The notes beneath the pieces are model-generated. The model did not search any database, was not told the origin of the DNA, and was given only the letters and a program-made list of their open reading frames with translations. From positions 1 through 64,000 of IMG/VR virus record IMGVR_UViG_3300021478_000015: 64,000 bases of DNA; one strand, written 5' to 3'. The DNA is from a virus. Positions 20,098-49,089 of the stretch are shown here, in pieces (the first letter of the stretch is position 1; every line of letters starts with the position of its first letter). The position numbers and the translations under genes were made by a program.

Positions 20098-20273
20098 GCG
20101 TCGAATCAGGGCCTCATTACTTCCGTCATCAGGGTTGGCGTTGGTGGATATGCCGTCATTGCTTCCGGCCCCGCTCTATGCACCCCGTCGATGAATGGGT
20201 TCGATCTCGACCAATCGGTGATCACATTCGTATGACCGCGACCCAGGTGCGCCAAAGTCTGGAGGGGATCTGA
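20094..20273 (+). CDS. small hypothetical protein (59 aa)
   Basis: GTGA and TGATG overlaps; CRHC. Confidence 0.55.
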   Translation: MSVESGPHYFRHQGWRWWICRHCFRPRSMHPVDEWVRSRPIGDHIRMTATQVRQSLEGI

Positions 20274-23200
20274 TGAGCCTCTTCAACTTCGTCCAGGCCC
20301 TCCCTGGCAACGACCGGGCCGTGGTCACAGTGGAGGATATGAGGGTCGAGACCCCCTGTGTGGTGTCCGATCTGGACGGTTTCAGCTACCTGCTGGTGGC
20401 CACTCCTTACGTCTACTACGACACCTTCGCTCAGGCCCACTCTATGGGCATCTCCGTATTGGCCTGTTGGGATGGCCAGTACTGGGCTCATCAGTTTTGG
20501 GATTACTTCATGGACTACCGGGACCCCGAGATCGTCCCGTATCGGATGGGGATCAAGACCATCGACCGGAGGGTGCTGACGCCCTTCGTAGACCTGATGG
20601 ACGCCGACGATGCCGACAACGCCGAGAACGCTCGGCCCACCTTCGTTAACGTCCATACCCACACCGAGTTCTCCGCTCTGGACGGACTGTCCAAGGTGGA
20701 GGAGATTGTCCGACTGGCCGCTGACATGGGCCAACCGGCCTTGGCCGTCACCGACCATGGCATGTGCGCGGCCCATCCCCACCTCCAGCTAAAGGCCACC
20801 GAGGCCGGGATCAAACCCATCTTCGGGCTGGAGGCCTACTTCGTCAACGACCGGCTGTGGCGGCCCACCCCTGGTGACAAGGAGGAGCAGGAGCGGGGCA
20901 AGAACGACTATCACCACCTGATCCTGTGGGCCATGACCGACGAGGGCCTGCACAACCTGTGGGCCATGTCCACCGCGGCGCACCGGGAGGGCTTCTACTA
21001 CCGGCCCCGGCTGGACTGGGAGATCCTGGAGCGCCTCAACGCCGGGGTCATGGCCTCCACCGCCTGCCTGCGCGGCCCCCTGTCGGTCCCCCTCCTGGCC
21101 GACGACGAAGAGCTAGCCGTCCGCAACCTGTCCCGGCTGCAGGCCATCTTCGGGGACCGGCTCTACATCGAGTTCCACTGCAACCAACTCCTCGAACAGC
21201 GCCAGGTCAACCAGGGCCTCATCGACCTGTCCCAACGCTTCAGCGTCCCGCTCGTTGCTGCCGTCGATTCGCATTACCCCTGCCGTGATGACCGGGTCAC
21301 CCATCAGACCTGGCTGGCCCTGCAGACCAAGGACGACCTGCAGGACGAGAACACCCTCTTCGCCGGGGGCCAGGACTACCACCTGATGGACCGGGCCGAG
21401 GTATGCAACGCCCTGGAGGCCCACTACCCCCGAGCCATCGTCTCCGCTGCCCTGGACGAGACGGTGGTCCTGGCGGAGCGCTGCAACGCCCAGGTGGCCT
21501 CCTCCTCCCGGCCGCCCATCTTCTCCAAGCCCACCCCCGAGATGACTCGGACCCTGACCCCCGAGGAGATCACCCAGACCCTCCTGCAGGCCGATGTCAC
21601 CCGGCTCATGGACATCTGCCTGGCCAACTGGGATCGAAAGGTCAAAGGAAAGAGCCATTCCGAGGCGGTGTATATCGAGCGTTTCGAGAAGGAAATGCGG
21701 ATGTATATCGACAAATCCTTCTGCGGGTATTTCGACATCGTCTCTGACTACACCCGGTGGTCCAAGGAGCAGGGCTGGATCATGGGGCCGTCGCGGGGCT
21801 CGGGTGGGGCCTGCCTGGTGGCCTACCTGGCCGACATCATCGAGATCGACCCGGTGGAGGCTGACCTGCCCCTGGCCCGGTTTATGACCCAAGGCCGCCC
21901 GGATCCTCCCGACTTCGACCTGGACTGGCCCTCCTCGGTGCGGACCCCCATCCAGACCTACGTGGCCGAGCGCTGGGGCGAGGAGCATGTGGTCCGGGTC
22001 GGCACCCACACCCGGCTCAAGAACAAGGGCGTCTTCCGCAACCTGGCGCGGGTCCACAAGACCTCCGACAGCCGTCAGGTGGAGTTCCTGGACCTGGAGG
22101 CCATCTGCAAGATCATCGAGGATGAGGAGGCCGACTCAGCCGGTCTGGGCAAGTCCTGGGAGGTGGTCTACCTGGCTAACGAGGAGGTCTTCGCCCCCTA
22201 CGTGGCCAAGTACCCCTGGCTGTTCGATCTGGCCACCAAGCTGGTTGGTCGGCTCAAGAGCTACAGCCGCCACGCCGCCGGGATGGTCATCTCCACCGAG
22301 AACACCCTGACCGACTGGCTGCCCATGCGGATGGGCGATGACGGTCACATGATCTCCGACTTCGACATGGAGGCTCTGGAGAAGCTCCACCTGCTCAAGT
22401 TCGACTTCCTGACCCTCCGCACCCTCGACACCCTGCAGGAGTGCATCGACCTGATCCACAAGCGCCGCCACGGGATCCGGGTGGATCTCTATAGCTGGAC
22501 CAAGGAGATGTACGCCGATCCCCTGGTCTGGGAGGGCATCAAGGACGGCTACACCATGGGCCTGTTCCAACTGGAGACCACCGCTGTCACCGGGCTCATC
22601 CGTCGCGTCAAGCCTTCCAACCTGGACGAGCTAGCCGACGTGATCACCCTGGTCCGGCCGGGACCCACCAACTCCGGACTGACTAGCACCTACATCAAGC
22701 GCAAGGACGGCCTGGAGGAGGTGTCGGTCCCCGACCCCCGGCTGGCCGACGTGCTGTCGCGCACCTACGGCTGCATCGTCTACCAGGAGGACATCATCAA
22801 CGTCTGCCGGGTGCTGGCCGGGTATGACGAGGAGGAGGCCGACGCGGTTCGCAAGGTGCTCGGCAAGAAGAAGGTCGAGCAGGTCGATGCCATGGGCAGG
22901 AAGTTCATCCCAGCCTGCGTGGATAGGGGTATGGATCGCGAGGCCGCCGAGGTTCTGTGGCATCAAATGGCGGAGTTTTCTAAGTACAGCTTCAACCGTG
23001 CTCACGCCTATGCTTACGCCGTATTAGCCTATTGGACGGCCTGGTTTAAGTTCCACTTCACCCCGGAGTTTCTGACCTCGGTGCTCTCCACTGTGGACAA
23101 GGCCCGCATCCCCGACTTCGTCAACGAGGCCCGGCGCATGCACTTTGCCGTGCTCCCGCCCGACATCAACGAGTCCGGCAAGGGGTTCACCGCCTACGAC

Positions 23201-24010
23201 ACCTCGGTGCGCTACGCCCTGGACGGCATCAAGGGCATCGGGGAGGCGGTGGTGGACGCCCTCATCGTCGGCCAGCCTTACGCCAGCTTCGAGGATTTCC
23301 TGGAGCGGCGCGGGAAAGCCTGCAACGAACTGCATATAAAGCTGCTGGCGGCGGTGGGGGTTTTCGACTCGATCTACCCCAACCGCCATGAGCTAGAGAT
23401 CAAGCTCGACTACCAATCCAGCCCGGAGTCCACCGAGTGCGTCTACATCGACCCCACCAAGACCAGCCTGGTTGGACCCAATCAACTGCCCTGCCGCTTT
23501 GACTGGGGCTCCGAGCCGATTGAGCTATCCAAGACCGGCAAGCCCAAGAAGGCCAAGCCGCTCCCCACCAAGTGCTTCAAGGGCTGCCGCCATTACACCG
23601 CCCCGCCCCCGTGGAGCCCCGACGTGGAGCCCTATACTCCCACCGACATCCAGGATCGGGAGATGTTGCACCTGGGGGTCTGGCTGTCCTCTACTCCCTT
23701 CGATCGCATCGCTGAACAGGACATGGCGATGTGTCACACCGCCGATGAGATCACCCGTGGTCCTCTCGGTGAGTACTTCGTGGCCGCCATCATCAGCAAG
23801 GTGAACCGACGCAAGGATCGTTACGATAACGAGTATGCCTGGGTGAAGCTCTTTGCTCAGACCGGGATATTCGATGGAGTGTGCTGGAGTAAGACCTTCG
23901 CTGGACTCAAGAATATGCTTCGAGAAGGCGTATTGGTCATAGCAGTGATAAACAAGAAGATGGCTCGGGATCGAGAGACCTATGAGATCACGGCTATAAT
24001 GCCGGTGTGA
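20273..24010 (+). CDS. dnaE: DNA polymerase III alpha subunit (family C)
   Basis: PHP HTHTEFSALDG/TDHG, SRGS, PDFDLD, HAAG, KFDFL, YSFNRAH. Confidence 0.97.
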   Translation: MSLFNFVQALPGNDRAVVTVEDMRVETPCVVSDLDGFSYLLVATPYVYYDTFAQAHSMGISVLACWDGQYWAHQFWDYFMDYRDPEIVPYRMGIKTIDRRVLTPFVDLMDADDADNAENARPTFVNVHTHTEFSALDGLSKVEEIVRLAADMGQPALAVTDHGMCAAHPHLQLKATEAGIKPIFGLEAYFVNDRLWRPTPGDKEEQERGKNDYHHLILWAMTDEGLHNLWAMSTAAHREGFYYRPRLDWEILERLNAGVMASTACLRGPLSVPLLADDEELAVRNLSRLQAIFGDRLYIEFHCNQLLEQRQVNQGLIDLSQRFSVPLVAAVDSHYPCRDDRVTHQTWLALQTKDDLQDENTLFAGGQDYHLMDRAEVCNALEAHYPRAIVSAALDETVVLAERCNAQVASSSRPPIFSKPTPEMTRTLTPEEITQTLLQADVTRLMDICLANWDRKVKGKSHSEAVYIERFEKEMRMYIDKSFCGYFDIVSDYTRWSKEQGWIMGPSRGSGGACLVAYLADIIEIDPVEADLPLARFMTQGRPDPPDFDLDWPSSVRTPIQTYVAERWGEEHVVRVGTHTRLKNKGVFRNLARVHKTSDSRQVEFLDLEAICKIIEDEEADSAGLGKSWEVVYLANEEVFAPYVAKYPWLFDLATKLVGRLKSYSRHAAGMVISTENTLTDWLPMRMGDDGHMISDFDMEALEKLHLLKFDFLTLRTLDTLQECIDLIHKRRHGIRVDLYSWTKEMYADPLVWEGIKDGYTMGLFQLETTAVTGLIRRVKPSNLDELADVITLVRPGPTNSGLTSTYIKRKDGLEEVSVPDPRLADVLSRTYGCIVYQEDIINVCRVLAGYDEEEADAVRKVLGKKKVEQVDAMGRKFIPACVDRGMDREAAEVLWHQMAEFSKYSFNRAHAYAYAVLAYWTAWFKFHFTPEFLTSVLSTVDKARIPDFVNEARRMHFAVLPPDINESGKGFTAYDTSVRYALDGIKGIGEAVVDALIVGQPYASFEDFLERRGKACNELHIKLLAAVGVFDSIYPNRHELEIKLDYQSSPESTECVYIDPTKTSLVGPNQLPCRFDWGSEPIELSKTGKPKKAKPLPTKCFKGCRHYTAPPPWSPDVEPYTPTDIQDREMLHLGVWLSSTPFDRIAEQDMAMCHTADEITRGPLGEYFVAAIISKVNRRKDRYDNEYAWVKLFAQTGIFDGVCWSKTFAGLKNMLREGVLVIAVINKKMARDRETYEITAIMPV

Positions 24011-24020
24011 AAGGAAGCTG

Positions 24021-40594: not shown

Positions 40595-41632
40595 TCAGGC
40601 GGCGTCTCCGCTCAGCAGGTTCACCACGTCGTCCCAGCGATCCGAGACGCCCTGCAGCAACTCTGAGGCGGTCTCCTCGGCGGCGATGGCCTCGTCCCAG
40701 GCCTCCTCGTTGCGCTCGCCCTCGACATGCTCGCGGATCAGGGCGGACAGGGTGGCCGGGTCCAGGGCGTCAAGCTCCCAGGACTCGTCGCCGTAGAGGC
40801 CGACGTAGCCCTCGGCGCGGGCGTCGGTCATCTTGGCCGGGTTGGGCGGCGGCTGGTACTCGTTCACCTGATCCATGGTCAGAGCGATGCGGCGGATCTC
40901 CAGGTGGCCGCAGGTGTCCTCGTACTCGTCCAGCCGGGTGCGGGCCACCGTCTTGTAGTCGTCGGCGTCGGGGTCGATCTCGCCGTCGCGGATCCACTTG
41001 CGGAGCATGGTGGTCATGCGGCGGATCATGTCCTTGCGGGTGAACAGGCGCAGCCGGTCCTCGATGTCGCGGCTCATGTCGATGCCGGAGGGGTCATGGT
41101 CGCCCAGGTGCAGGATGAGGACGTTTTGGCCCTTCCACAGGTACTCGTTGAGGCGCTGGGCCGCCCCCCAGATCTCGGACTGGCTGGTGTAGCCCCGGCA
41201 GGAGAAGTACGGCACGTCCAGGTCCGGGCAGACCACGTCCAGCACGCCGACCAGGGCATCCTTCTCGATCCAGACCTCGATGCGGGTGGGCTGACTGGCC
41301 CACTTGTCGGTGCGGAACTGCCGGGCGGCGGCCTTGATCAGGTCGGTGGGCTCGTCCCAGTGGGCCAGGGAGCGCAGGTTGCGGGTCCGGTCCACGATGT
41401 AGTCCCAGTCCAGCATCCCGGCCAGGCGGGCGTCGTTGATGATCGAGCCCAGGCGCTTGTACTCGGTCTGCTTGTTGGCGATCAGGCCCCGGCTGACGAA
41501 CTGGTAGTAAAGCTGCCGCAGGGTCAGGTCGTAGCCCTGGGCGGCGTAGTTGGCGCAGATGGCCTCGGCCTGGCCGATGATCTTCAGCGAGCCGGGCGAG
41601 AACTTCTTGGGGGTGTACTCGATCTTGGCCAT
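40595..41632 (-). CDS. Topo VI-A/Spo11-like WHD-TOPRIM protein
   Basis: TLRQLYY, EVWIEKDA, RGY.S, GDHDPSG, RIALT, WELDAL. Confidence 0.85.
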   Translation of the reverse strand: MAKIEYTPKKFSPGSLKIIGQAEAICANYAAQGYDLTLRQLYYQFVSRGLIANKQTEYKRLGSIINDARLAGMLDWDYIVDRTRNLRSLAHWDEPTDLIKAAARQFRTDKWASQPTRIEVWIEKDALVGVLDVVCPDLDVPYFSCRGYTSQSEIWGAAQRLNEYLWKGQNVLILHLGDHDPSGIDMSRDIEDRLRLFTRKDMIRRMTTMLRKWIRDGEIDPDADDYKTVARTRLDEYEDTCGHLEIRRIALTMDQVNEYQPPPNPAKMTDARAEGYVGLYGDESWELDALDPATLSALIREHVEGERNEEAWDEAIAAEETASELLQGVSDRWDDVVNLLSGDAA

Positions 41633-41665
41633 CAAATGGCCTCGGTGGTGGTGGTTATGGCGGGC

Positions 41666-41697
41666 ACGTTAGCAAACTTTCCTAGAGAGTGCAAGTC
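41666..41697 (-). promoter_or_regulatory. promoter with operator motif (class B, spacer/-10)
   Basis: TTGCAC-17-TAACGT containing CTCTAGG-AAAGTT-TGCTAA. Confidence 0.85.
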
Positions 41698-41830: not shown

Positions 41831-42889
41831 TCAAGCAGCCACCTCCACGGGGCGCTCCTTGGCCCCCTCGCCGTCTGACTCGCCGTCCTTGGTCCAGCGG
41901 ATGCCCTGGACCCAGTCGGCGGCGTACTGGGCCTGGGAGGCGGCCTGCATGAGCCACTTGGGCTCGCTCTGCAGCTTGGACAGCCAGCCCTGTAGGTAGG
42001 CGGCCGAGTTGTCGATGGTGGAGTTCTCGATCCCGGCGATCCCGCACAGCATGGCGGCGGTCATCTCCGCGGTTAGCTCCTCCTTGGAGTAGCTGGTGTC
42101 CCCGAAGGAGTGCGACTCCATCAGGTCCTTGCGGGCCAGGCGGCTGGCGTGGCCCGTCGAGTGGCCCATCTCATGGAACAGGGTCGAGTAGTAGGCCTCG
42201 GGGGTGGTGAAGGCGGTGGGCTCGGGCATGCCGATGAAGTCCCGGCTGGGCGAGTAGTAGGCCCGGTTGCCGCCGTGGTGGACCTCGACCTCGGTGTAGC
42301 CGTCCGCCAGGGCCTGAGCCGCCTCGATGGCGTCGAACTCGGGGGCATCCTCGGCGGCCTCGGAGGGCTGGAACTTCTTCGGGAGCGTGCCCTGGTGGAC
42401 CTGATCCTGGTTCCAGACGTTGAACTCCTTGGGGAAGCGGATCCGGACCTTGCGGACCTTGCCGGTGGCCTCGTCCTTCTCCTCCTTGACGAAGCTCCCC
42501 CACCAGATGACCTTGGTGCATTTCTCGCCCTTGCGGACCCCGAAGTCGAGCCCCTCGGGATGGACCCAGGAGTTGCCCTCCTTGACCGCCCCGGCCTGGC
42601 GCGCCCACTCGTCGTAGGTGGCCCAGAAGGTGGACTTGTAGCCCTTCTCCAGGGCCTCGCCCAGGAGCAGCCAGAGGTTGATGCCCCGGTAGAGCTTGCC
42701 GGTGGAGACCGAGCGGGGGAACATGGAGCCGCCGTCCGCGGCCTTCCATTCCTGCAGCCAGATCAGCTTCTTGGTCTGCAGCGACAGGGCGCAGATGCGG
42801 TCAACGACCGACTGGTAGAGGTCCTTGCGGGGCTTGGCGGGGGTGACCCGGCCGGACTTGGTGGACTTGGACTTGGTGGTGGTGGCCAT
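41831..42889 (-). CDS. ardC: ArdC-like antirestriction protein (ssDNA-binding plus zincin domain)
   Basis: TGKLYRGIN, WATY..W, VRKGEK, RAYYSP..D.I.MP, HEMGH.TGH..RL.R, YSKEEL.AE. Confidence 0.92.
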   Translation of the reverse strand: MATTTKSKSTKSGRVTPAKPRKDLYQSVVDRICALSLQTKKLIWLQEWKAADGGSMFPRSVSTGKLYRGINLWLLLGEALEKGYKSTFWATYDEWARQAGAVKEGNSWVHPEGLDFGVRKGEKCTKVIWWGSFVKEEKDEATGKVRKVRIRFPKEFNVWNQDQVHQGTLPKKFQPSEAAEDAPEFDAIEAAQALADGYTEVEVHHGGNRAYYSPSRDFIGMPEPTAFTTPEAYYSTLFHEMGHSTGHASRLARKDLMESHSFGDTSYSKEELTAEMTAAMLCGIAGIENSTIDNSAAYLQGWLSKLQSEPKWLMQAASQAQYAADWVQGIRWTKDGESDGEGAKERPVEVAA

Positions 42890-42896
42890 GGGAAGT

Positions 42897-42928
42897 ACGT
42901 TAGCAGACTTTCTTAGAGGGCGCAAGTC
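42897..42928 (-). promoter_or_regulatory. promoter with operator motif (class B), leaderless
   Basis: TTGCGC-17-TAACGT-7-ATG; CTCTAAG-AAAGTC-TGCTAA. Confidence 0.85.
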
Positions 42929-42946: not shown

Positions 42947-42986
42947 AAGAAAAGCGAGAGCCCCCGGTTGTAAGTCGGGGGCTCTC
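42947..42986 (-). terminator. intrinsic terminator
   Basis: 11-bp stem GAGAGCCCCCG/CGGGGGCTCTC followed by GCTTTTCTT. Confidence 0.85.
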
Positions 42987-43362
42987 ATTCCAGGTTGTGC
43001 TCGGTCCTGCGGTCCTGCCTGACGTGACCCGGAGCTTGGTTGCATCGCAGCTTGGTGGGCCAGGAGGCCCTCCCACTCTCTCCGGCAGGGTTAGCGTCCC
43101 TGCGTACTCTGTGGTTTTGATTGTCAGCGGTCAGTTCCCTGGGCTCAAGCCGTTCGCCCGAGGGCTCCCCGGATTCGACTACGCACGCCCTGGTGACCCG
43201 ACACTTAGCCCCGAGGGGCACTTCAGTGCCGGTGCCACTTCGAGTCGCGGTACCGGGGATGTAAGAGGGATGGGACGGGTGCGGAGGCTGGCCACTGGGC
43301 GGGCCTCCCTTCTGACTGCGGTGCGGGTTACGCCATAGCTTCCTTTCTCGATCGGTGAGTAC
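42947..43362 (-). ncRNA. candidate ~415-nt structured RNA with 5' Met-Ala-stop minigene
   Basis: Own operator-bearing promoter and terminator; no credible long ORF; many hairpins. Confidence 0.65.
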
Positions 43363-43369
43363 AGGAAGC

Positions 43370-43401
43370 ACGTTAGCAAGGATTCCTAGAGAAGTCAAGT
43401 C
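43370..43401 (-). promoter_or_regulatory. promoter with operator motif (class B)
   Basis: TTGACT-17-TAACGT; CTCTAGG-AATCCT-TGCTAA. Confidence 0.85.
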
Positions 43402-47067: not shown

Positions 47068-48949
47068 GGTATTGATCCTGGTAGGCAAGGAGTCTTTCTC
47101 TAAGTCTTTTGTTGCGTGAAGCTGCCAGAGCAAGAGTCGTAGCATCGACGGTTACTAGCTTGCCACGTTGTCTTTGATCTTCGATGTACAACTCGGCGCA
47201 CTCGATGAGCTTGACGGTGCCATATCCCCCTTGGGTGTCATAGGCGTCTCCTAGCTCAGCCACGGTGCCCAGGGGCTCGAATCGGACTCTCGGCTTAGGA
47301 GCACCCCGGACCTTGACTACCGGGGGATTAGCAGGCTCACCCTCGATCACGGTGAGGGGTGGTAACAGAGGGACCTCTCGTCTTATCCGTTCGGCCATGG
47401 AGATCAGGTCGGGATCGGCGGGCATGTAGATCCGGCCGATGTTGGTCGGGTCGTTGGGATCGATTCGCATCACCCGGCCCACGATCTGGCGGAAAGCCAG
47501 CTTGGTCTTGGTATTGGTCAGGTAGACCACGGCTCGCAGACGGCGGATGTCGATGCCCTCCGAGATCATGTTGACGGCCACCAGCCAGCGCTTGCTGGCA
47601 TGGTGGGCCTTGAACTGGCGGATGACATCGGCGGCATTTTGATCGTCAGGGTTGGTGTCCTTGGACCAGGCCTTCATCGGTTTGATACCGGTGATCTTCT
47701 CTAGGCGCTTGGCGATGCGTTCGGCGTGATCACAGTCGTAACACACCACTAATCCGGCAGCATCAGGATCACCATTGTCGCGGATATCGATCAGCCAATC
47801 ATTGGCTTTGTGTATTAGCTGATCGGTGATGGTCCCATCCCCGATGCAATCCAGGGCGGTAAGCAGACGGCGTTTCTTTCCGAGTGTGCTTACATCCGGG
47901 TCGTTAAAGTCGAGGGTGTGCTCGGTGCCGTCCTCGTTGCGGAAGGTGGTCGATCCCTGGGTAGTGAGGAACTGCACCCGGCGGCAGGCCGGAGGTTTGT
48001 CCCGAAGAGCATGGCCATAGGTGTAGCGATAGAGCGGTTTGGCAGCACCTCCGGTATGGGGCACGAAGGCAATCTTCTTGGCGTCGGTACGGAACGGGGT
48101 CCCTGACATCGACAGGATGCACCGGGCTCCCTGGGCGAAGGCGGTCTGGGCGGCCAGGCCCCAGGTCTTGTCGGTGGCGACGTGGTGGACCTCATCGAAG
48201 ATGACCAGGGTGTTGTGGTGAACGTTGGTGGTCGTCCGGCCCTTTTTCTCGATACTGATGTCAGTGGCGTGGGCCAGGAAGGTGTCAGTCATTCTGGCCA
48301 GGGATTGGTAGCTGAGGACCGCTCCCACAGCGTTGTCTGGGATGGCCCTGGTGGGCCTCCAGATCGCCCCTCTGGTGCTAACCAGGGGCAGGGTGGGGTT
48401 GTCGGGCTCTCGCTTGCTGGCGGCTAGCAGCCAGCCGTCTGCGATGCCGATGGTGTGAACCACCACCAACACCCGCGAGATCTCCCCAGCCTTGATCAGA
48501 TGGTGGGCTACCTCCAGGGCCAGGCGGGTCTTGCCTGCACCGGGGCAGGCCTCGATCAGTACCGGGTCGTTCAGGATACGGGGTAGGATCTTGTCCAGAG
48601 CCTGCTCCTGCCAGTGCCGGAGCCTGTCGTCCCCGGCTGCCAGCAGGTCCAGGTTGAACTGCTTGGCCAGGGTCTCGTAGGTCTGGTTGCCCTTGCGGGC
48701 GTTGCAATGACGGCACAGGGCCATGAGGTTGGAGTAGACGGTGCGGCCACCCTTGCTCCAGGGGAAGACGTGGTCGCCGTCGAAGAGGTCACGGGGAAGC
48801 TCGCGCTGGCAGGGCGGGCACTTCCTGCCTTGGGCCTCCCACTTGCGGATCACCTCGGCGCGGCTGAACCTCCGGTGAGGATCCCGTTGATCCAGGGGTA
48901 CGTCAGGGATCTTGGGCTCGCCCAGCAGGACGGCTCCGGTGAGGTTCAT
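47054..48949 (-). CDS. HNH endonuclease fused to SF2 (restriction Res-like) helicase
   Basis: C..C..DHVFPWSKGG..NL..LC..CN..K; PGAGKT, DEVHH, SGTP, EGID, QIVGR. Confidence 0.92.
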   Translation of the reverse strand: MNLTGAVLLGEPKIPDVPLDQRDPHRRFSRAEVIRKWEAQGRKCPPCQRELPRDLFDGDHVFPWSKGGRTVYSNLMALCRHCNARKGNQTYETLAKQFNLDLLAAGDDRLRHWQEQALDKILPRILNDPVLIEACPGAGKTRLALEVAHHLIKAGEISRVLVVVHTIGIADGWLLAASKREPDNPTLPLVSTRGAIWRPTRAIPDNAVGAVLSYQSLARMTDTFLAHATDISIEKKGRTTTNVHHNTLVIFDEVHHVATDKTWGLAAQTAFAQGARCILSMSGTPFRTDAKKIAFVPHTGGAAKPLYRYTYGHALRDKPPACRRVQFLTTQGSTTFRNEDGTEHTLDFNDPDVSTLGKKRRLLTALDCIGDGTITDQLIHKANDWLIDIRDNGDPDAAGLVVCYDCDHAERIAKRLEKITGIKPMKAWSKDTNPDDQNAADVIRQFKAHHASKRWLVAVNMISEGIDIRRLRAVVYLTNTKTKLAFRQIVGRVMRIDPNDPTNIGRIYMPADPDLISMAERIRREVPLLPPLTVIEGEPANPPVVKVRGAPKPRVRFEPLGTVAELGDAYDTQGGYGTVKLIECAELYIEDQRQRGKLVTVDATTLALAASRNKRLRERLLAYQDQYHVAS

Positions 48950-49089
48950 GACTCCACCTGGACCCGGCCCCGGCAGGCGCGCTTAGCGGCCACCTTCTTC
49001 TTGGACTGGACGGTCTTGGCCCGCAGGGGGACGTGGGGGTTCATGACCCGCGCCCCAGGGCGGGCGGAGGTGCGTCTGGGCTTGGCCAT
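48946..49089 (-). CDS. small basic peptide (47 aa)
   Basis: TGATG and ATGA overlaps; MAKPRR..SKKKVAAKRACR. Confidence 0.65.
   Translation of the reverse strand: MAKPRRTSARPGARVMNPHVPLRAKTVQSKKKVAAKRACRGRVQVES

Follow-up and report, generated by a model that had tools for sequence, protein, structure and literature searches.

Few structured phage RNAs with a promoter and a terminator of their own have been described, and for the actinobacteriophage example, the Pleft RNA of L5 and D29, we know of no assigned function. This early non-coding RNA of about 500 nt, found in the mycobacteriophages L5, D29 and StarStuff, is abundant, stable and toxic to the host, and its function was described as unknown (Dedrick et al. 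2017, PMC5712189). The transcription unit analyzed here resembles it: no conserved open reading frame is present in the roughly 400-500 nt behind an early host-type promoter, and a terminator closes this stretch, within which most Pleft transcripts end as well. Both are found in actinobacteriophages. However, the resemblance is one of layout only, as no sequence similarity was detected by blastn. Furthermore, the locus of the Pleft RNA is the genome end in temperate siphoviruses; the unit, in contrast, belongs to the interior of the early region in a genome of 157 kb. Abundance, stability and toxicity were measured for the Pleft RNA.

The 5′ end of the unit recalls two other systems. A ribosome or 30S subunit bound near the 5′ end of an RNA blocks RNase J1, as described for STAB-SD elements (PMC4113751) and for the hbs mRNA (PMC5737220). 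Like the STAB-SD elements of cry3A and hbs, the leader of the phage RNA carries a strong Shine-Dalgarno (SD) sequence close to the 5′ end with no real protein behind it. The hbs case involves pairing between 5′ and 3′ regions, and the predicted full-length fold of the phage RNA likewise pairs the SD with the 3′ tail. STAB-SD elements, however, protect mRNAs of Firmicutes, whereas in the phage RNA a two-codon open reading frame follows the SD, and the body to be protected would be a non-coding RNA in a high-GC host. The minigene itself has the arrangement of lambda bar, i.e. SD, AUG, one sense codon and stop on an early phage transcript. However, the sense codon of bar is AUA (Ile), and its toxicity is confined to conditions of limiting Pth, whereas the minigene of the source phage uses GCG, probably a common codon, and, as a further difference from bar, is not conserved in relatives.

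Finally, PE1-T of the lactococcal phage c2 (Ceduovirus), described in PMC7150918 as a structured non-coding transcript that starts at the first of two early promoters, is comparable in its organization. There is no homology between the two, and the unit in the source phage lacks origin-like repeats and is closed by a strong terminator.

The unit represents a second, unrelated actinobacteriophage RNA family with clear boundaries, a conserved core and testable helices. A first-pass annotation of the same DNA had put the minigene into the foreground; the results presented here shift the emphasis to a conserved RNA module downstream of it.

Results and discussion

The source phage and its relatives

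The DNA analyzed (the window, 64,000 nucleotides) starts at position 1 of an IMG/VR virus genome of 156,983 bp with 62% G+C, which is rated complete by CheckV. Its terminase is 31-32% identical to the terminases of Cluster C mycobacteriophages and of Rhodococcus phage E3, and the virus is therefore regarded as an uncultured actinobacteriophage. Between 40 and 52 kb the window consists of a leftward-running block of small cassettes, which includes the unit. Two related contigs, 3300036791_000797 (L004) and 3300036832_001633 (L005), were recovered from IMG/VR by searches with ArdC and terminase. Their terminases are 85-86% identical to that of the source phage, with 63-66% identity at third codon positions, and the ArdC proteins share 57-62% of their amino acids.

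Architecture of the cassette

The positions of all features are collected in Table 1. The first-pass annotation had proposed a promoter of the form TTGACT-17-TAACGT, a strong SD followed by ATG-GCG-TAA near the start of the RNA, the same sequence in front of recA, a series of stems and an intrinsic terminator near 42947. All of these elements are present: the promoter and the SD with its minigene (43348-43328) lie on the minus strand, the sequence common to the recA upstream region is AAAGGAAGCT (24010-24019), and every listed stem can be found in the sequence.

Table 1. Coordinates of the RNA cassette, of the adjoining ArdC cassette and of the basic-protein genes (window positions unless a contig is named).
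Feature	Position	Strand	Basis or remark
Promoter/operator module GACTTGACTTCTCTAGGAATCCTTGCTAACGT, 32 nt	43370..43401	-	one of 12 genome copies
-35 element TTGACT	43398-43393	-	followed by 17-nt conserved spacer and -10
-10 element TAACGT	43375-43370	-	sequence
Predicted transcription start, G	43362	-	7 nt past the -10 hexamer
Lineage-specific leader, 103 nt	43260..43362	-	hairpin GGAGGC (43308-43303) / GCCUCC (43288-43283)
Shine-Dalgarno AGAAAGGAAG	43339..43348	-	sequence; 15 nt from predicted +1
Minigene ATG-GCG-TAA (Met-Ala-stop)	43328..43336	-	sequence; 27 nt from predicted 5′ end
Conserved structured RNA core	42987..43259	-	alignment to L004 and L005
Helix H1, UCCCCGG / CCGGGGA	43259-43253 / 43172-43166	-	encloses variable domain
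Helix H3, CCCUCGGGC / GCCCAGGG	43164-43156 / 43144-43137	-	conserved loop GAACGGCUUGA
Helix H4, GCAGGG / CCCUGC	43103-43098 / 43090-43085	-	stem invariant, loop variable
Invariant purine tract CCGGAGAGAGUGGGAGGGC	43085-43067	-	alignment
Candidate helix, UCCGGGU / ACCUGGA	43033-43027 / 42995-42989	-	
Intrinsic terminator, 11-bp G+C-rich stem, 9-nt loop, tail GCUUUUCUU	42947..42986	-	sequence
Terminator stem arms, GAGAGCCCCCG / CGGGGGCUCUC	42986-42976 / 42966-42956	-	tail runs to 42947
Next cassette: promoter of the same family (42928-42897) and leaderless ArdC gene (ATG 42889)	41831..42928	-	Pfam ArdcN 8e-23, MPTase-PolyVal 6e-37
Source-phage copy of the 46-47-aa basic protein	48946..49089	-	tblastn E = 5e-11, 60% identity; upstream of HNH-helicase gene
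Other basic-protein copies	L004:504-644; L005:2601-2738; L043:1836-1973		

The promoter is a member of a family. Twelve copies of the 32-nt module, with the consensus GACTTGNNNNCTCTAAGGAAANCTGCTAACGT, were identified in the 157-kb genome, those in the window at 2923 (+) and at 41697, 42928, 43401, 44984, 49379 and 50623 (-), the others at genome positions 75514, 76834, 79395, 80365 and 87091 (+). The motif GCTAACGT occurs four times in the window as compared to 0.37 expected occurrences; given this excess and the 12 copies of the module, the promoter is not a chance match. TTGACT serves as the -35 element in only two of the 12 copies, namely at 43401 and at genome position 79395. A generic scan for sigma-70 promoters and terminators missed both signals of the unit because the -10 element matches TATAAT at three of six positions and the terminator loop has 9 nt.

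Most copies of the module are followed by a leaderless ATG that starts 7-9 nt past the -10 hexamer. G43362 occupies the position of the A of this leaderless ATG at ArdC (42889) and at the copies 49379, 44984, 50623 and genome position 79395, and this analogy with the paralogous leaderless promoters supports G43362 as the probable transcription start. The 17-nt spacer (CTCTAAGGAAANCTGC) is conserved as strongly as both hexamers, which suggests that it contains a putative operator.

At the other end of the unit, the terminator is directly followed by the ArdC promoter. In each of the three phages the RNA cassette is located upstream of ArdC and shares its orientation, and the co-regulation with ArdC proposed earlier is borne out insofar as the two are served by promoters of one family.

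A conserved and structured 3′ module

Window positions 43182-42949 match L004:700-934 and L005:2794-3028 with 83-84% identity over 240 nt, and in a structure-anchored alignment the homology extends to 43259. Insertions and deletions within the core are 1-2 nt long. Since third codon positions of the terminase are only 63-66% identical, this stretch must be under purifying selection.

The alignment also bears on the structure of the RNA. In both relatives helix H1 reads CGCAUGG/CCAUGCG, with four of the seven pairs altered on both sides compared to the source phage. The paired sequence of H3 is different in each of the three phages and closes the conserved loop GAACGRCUUGA, and the terminator stem is preserved in the relatives by compensatory changes. 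The comparison with homologues, recommended by the first-pass annotation as a check, thus yielded compensatory changes in support of three helices in L004 and L005, on the basis of three sequences from two lineages, with correspondingly thin statistics and with most helices invariant. The G-U pairs in the alignment are consistent with the minus strand. With a z-score of -1.2 against shuffled sequences the core does not fold better than expected by chance (antisense strand, +1.1), and the case for a structure therefore rests on covariation in two lineages. The whole unit reaches z = -2.9 because it includes the terminator and the pairing between the 5′ and 3′ regions.

A pseudoknot between GGCUUG in the H3 loop and CAAGC(U) was considered and found to be unsupported, as a G-to-A change in L005 breaks the pairing. 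The short duplications noted earlier, CCAAGCT and GCAGGACC, are each present twice in the source phage and are not retained in L004 and L005.

The unit is non-coding

Three open frames in the unit were considered. The 125-codon frame P0002 opens with GTA exactly at the predicted +1 and ends with TGA at 42985. GGGAGG-N8-GUG (43295) opens a frame of 38 codons, so that the earlier statement that no SD-led frame follows the minigene needs correction; this frame has flat GC3 and no counterpart in the relatives. The third candidate is an antisense open reading frame of 113 codons. A protein gene could be favored on the grounds that the frame anchored at +1, the place of the leaderless ATG in paralogous cassettes, stays open across the transcript, and that about 45 codons are open in three of three phages. 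However, GTA is not a start codon, and GC3 is between 0.60 and 0.69 in all six frames of the unit as compared to 0.81-0.96 in seven real genes. Substitutions relative to L004 show no third-position bias (alignment A1), and every frame is broken in the relatives by frame-shifting indels of 1 and 2 nt and by an in-frame stop in L004. A search of 5.8 billion proteins with the translation of P0002 gave no homologue, and there was no match to Pfam or PHROG. Thus, the unit is non-coding, and we give a protein gene in any of these frames next to no credence.

The leader and its minigene are confined to the source phage

The SD and the minigene are arranged as AGAAAGGAAG-CU-AUG-GCG-UAA (43348-43328). 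The first 8 nt of AGAAAGGAAG are complementary to the assumed 3′ end of actinobacterial 16S rRNA (...CCUCCUUUCU-3′). Only two places in 314 kb (both strands) combine an SD of at least 8 nt with a start codon, no more than two codons and a stop. GCG fits the GC3 of 0.81-0.96 in the genome and is probably a common codon, as judged from the phage genome. On its own the leader has a folding z-score of +0.55.

The minigene is absent from both relatives, and no homologue of the leader was found in these two or in two more distant complete phages (G026, G027, G028 and G029). A local alignment of the leader with the small open reading frame that the relatives carry at this place is no better than alignments with shuffled sequences, and the idea that the leader is a decayed copy of it was rejected. 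The first-pass annotation had defined the RNA by the engagement of ribosomes through the SD and the minigene. The comparison does not support this definition: neither of the two relatives, the only ones known, has a counterpart of the leader, and the conserved, covarying part lies downstream of it. Judged from the alignments, the leader with its minigene is the least conserved part of the unit, and the minigene would be at most a lineage-specific, ribosome-loading 5′ cap.

A small basic-protein gene at the position of the leader in the relatives

At the position of the leader, L004 and L005 have a promoter of the same type, followed by a leaderless 46-codon open reading frame for a basic protein (MATTRKPQAARAKRAMNPLVTLRA...). 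The differences between the two versions are mostly third-position changes plus one 3-nt indel, and the frame thus behaves as expected for a real gene. The first-pass annotation had allowed that the TAA of the minigene might be a recent nonsense mutation in a protein gene that relatives have retained. Half of this applies: a small intact gene does exist there, at the 5′ end of the unit, but it is unrelated to the minigene region; since, in addition, the source phage has its own copy of this gene at 48946-49089, the TAA is not a recent nonsense mutation in that gene.

The proteins of this family are 45-47 aa long and very basic (...RAMNPLVTLRAKTIPSKKRVAAKRACRGRV...) and have no counterpart in Pfam or PHROG; the JGI label 'ribosomal protein L17' looks spurious. 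In the more distant contig L043 the gene is not followed by the RNA, and several genes including one for a SNF2 helicase lie downstream. As the gene stands without an adjacent RNA in L043 and in the source phage, it is a separate module, and it may adjoin the RNA in the relatives merely through the shuffling of cassettes. The motif CTCACCG(A/G) is found after the stop of the small gene in the source phage (48943-48937) and in L004 (647-654), and it also opens the RNA in the source phage (43359-43352). This hints at a rearrangement junction; the motif may mark the junction of an insertion or deletion of about 5.6 kb, which lies between the small gene and the RNA and contains the HNH-helicase gene, a three-gene cassette and two paralogues.

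Extent of the RNA family

No match to Rfam 15 at the gathering threshold was found in the window, and permissive searches with E up to 10 of the window, L004 and L005 yielded just noise of at most 20 bits, which agrees with the earlier proposal of an undescribed RNA. With a covariance model built from the 3′ module (R1), neither L043 nor any of 31 related viral records yielded another copy; these searches covered 27 ArdC-related viral records and the two complete phages with 49% terminase identity. Exact-pattern scans with four conserved blocks against viral, metagenome and genome contigs returned the two known relatives and additional matches that were rejected by the covariance model as chance. 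No blastn match was obtained in a plasmid collection or, in distant mode, in 50,697 phage records. As far as these sequence collections reach, the RNA module is a new, undescribed family of three members from two lineages.

Several more specific readings were discarded. A T-box, a tRNA-like element or a tmRNA, as suggested by GGUACCGCG and GUCGAAUCC, was not supported by Rfam or ARAGORN. No target or partner of the RNA was found: nothing in it pairs with the leaderless 5′ ends that the genes have in common (AUGACCACCACC), and the longest complementarity between the RNA and the phage genome amounts to 13 nt, which is at chance level. An antisense action on these 5′ ends or on other phage sites was therefore dismissed. 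GGUGGCGGU of L004, regarded as a possible antisense element, is not conserved in the window.

Possible function of the RNA

We consider it about an even chance (probability roughly 0.5) that the unit is a self-contained early cassette for a stable non-coding RNA, with its functional part in the conserved 3′ module (43259-42947, about 310 nt). A host-type promoter with an operator-like spacer would direct the synthesis of an RNA of about 415 nt that ends at the intrinsic terminator. Its 3′ module would fold into a multi-helix structure and would most likely act in trans as a stable early RNA, possibly as a protein-binding scaffold or as a decoy during takeover of the host or in counter-defence. 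The leader (103 nt), with SD and Met-Ala-stop, would be a lineage-specific add-on, and its likeliest role would be to keep a ribosome or 30S subunit close to the 5′ end, thereby shielding the RNA from 5′-end-dependent decay, a task that the leaderless 46-codon open reading frame could fulfil in the relatives. Since each of the three versions carries a site of translation initiation at its 5′ end, a bound ribosome would protect the RNA in each of them. The promoter family, the lack of coding signal, the conservation above the neutral level and the compensatory pairs are observed; for the unit as a whole we infer a start at the predicted site, early synthesis, action in trans and a stabilizer at the 5′ end, the last by analogy with elements of Firmicutes.

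Among other explanations, it is unlikely that the module is a cis-acting 3′ element, i.e. a structured 3′ UTR with terminator, which stabilizes or regulates the mRNA of the small protein upstream of it and which was orphaned by rearrangement in the source phage, where it would simply have persisted. In L004 and L005 the module would be co-transcribed with the 46-codon frame, no internal promoter being visible, and the shared CTCACCG(A/G) suggests a rearrangement junction. However, the module of the source phage has a full-strength promoter and a terminator of its own and is 84% identical in the absence of the frame, the small gene occurs without the module in L043 and in the source phage, and about 270 conserved nucleotides are rarely needed by a 3′ stabilizer. 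An origin-type transcript that primes or activates phage replication through an R-loop, comparable to c2 PE1-T or ColE1 RNA II, appears rather unlikely. Such a role would fit the position of a non-coding stretch between two early-type promoters of the same orientation (43401 and 42928), as in the origins of Ceduovirus treated in PMC7150918, the purine- and G-rich tract GGAGAGAGUGGGAGGG as the most conserved block, and the abundance of replication genes in the region (Pol III alpha, RecA, RNR and helicases). The strong terminator, however, would stop transcription short of AT-rich or iteron-like sequence, repeats typical of origins and a tie to replication are missing, and the GC skew follows gene direction only and marks no origin.

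That the SD and the two-codon minigene are the active part, either as a ribosome or initiation sponge or as a bar-like device for peptidyl-tRNA drop-off, is improbable. The contiguous complementarity of 8 nt directly before ATG-GCG-TAA, so close to the predicted 5′ end, the rarity of the arrangement in the genome, the use of the same SD by RecA and the established mechanism of bar (Hernandez-Sanchez 1998, as cited in PMC2490762) speak for it. Against it, both relatives lack the leader with its minigene and keep the downstream module; GCG is probably an ordinary codon at a GC3 of 0.8-0.96, so that starvation for its tRNA would be unlikely; a single site per transcript is a weak sponge; and the full-length fold pairs the SD with the 3′ tail. 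Most doubtful of these four is a non-functional remnant of cassette shuffling that is transcribed without a role. Promoter cassettes do form a mosaic in the early region, and decayed starts or tiny open reading frames occur in several, but an identity of 84% as compared to about 65% at neutral sites, together with compensatory changes in the helices, argues for selection.

Returning to the trans-acting stable RNA, a further-reaching version, which we offer with considerable doubt, would be that the module is a new kind of takeover or counter-defence RNA which is always placed on a transcript with a ribosome-loaded 5′ end, by a leaderless frame or by an SD-minigene, and that initiation stabilizes, positions or activates it, e.g. 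as a ribosome-associated or RNA-polymerase-binding decoy. The two kinds of 5′ end, one translated as a leaderless open reading frame and the other as an SD-minigene, provide a natural experiment, and the cassette is small enough for synthesis and testing in a model actinobacterium.

Additional observations

ARAGORN detected no tRNA or tmRNA genes across the 157-kb genome; Cluster C mycobacteriophages, to which the source phage is distantly related, carry many tRNA genes. At 20273-24010 (+) of the window, an open reading frame of 1245 aa encodes a DnaE-type Pol III alpha subunit with PHP, NTPase, finger and HHH domains; the gene directly 3′ of it was identified as RecA by Pfam.

The promoter module of the source phage is also present in L004 and L005. 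At most of its copies, the leaderless genes begin with ATG(A/G)CCACCACC, corresponding to MTTT or MATT, and the promoter cassette thus seems to include the first codons of the gene it drives. The copy before a Topo VI-A-like gene (41630-41697, -) has ATA instead of ATG at +1. An 8-codon frame, ATA ACC ACC ACC ACC GAG GCC ATT TGA, follows this 41697 promoter and ends in a stop that overlaps the TTG/ATG at which the gene begins; the frame may be a leaderless start that has decayed, or else a coupling uORF. Outside the window, at genome positions 75514-75580 and 76834-76900 (+), two further promoter copies precede leaderless open reading frames of nine codons (MTTKLSNPS* and MTTTHNQAC*), which may represent further cassettes of the non-coding or uORF type.
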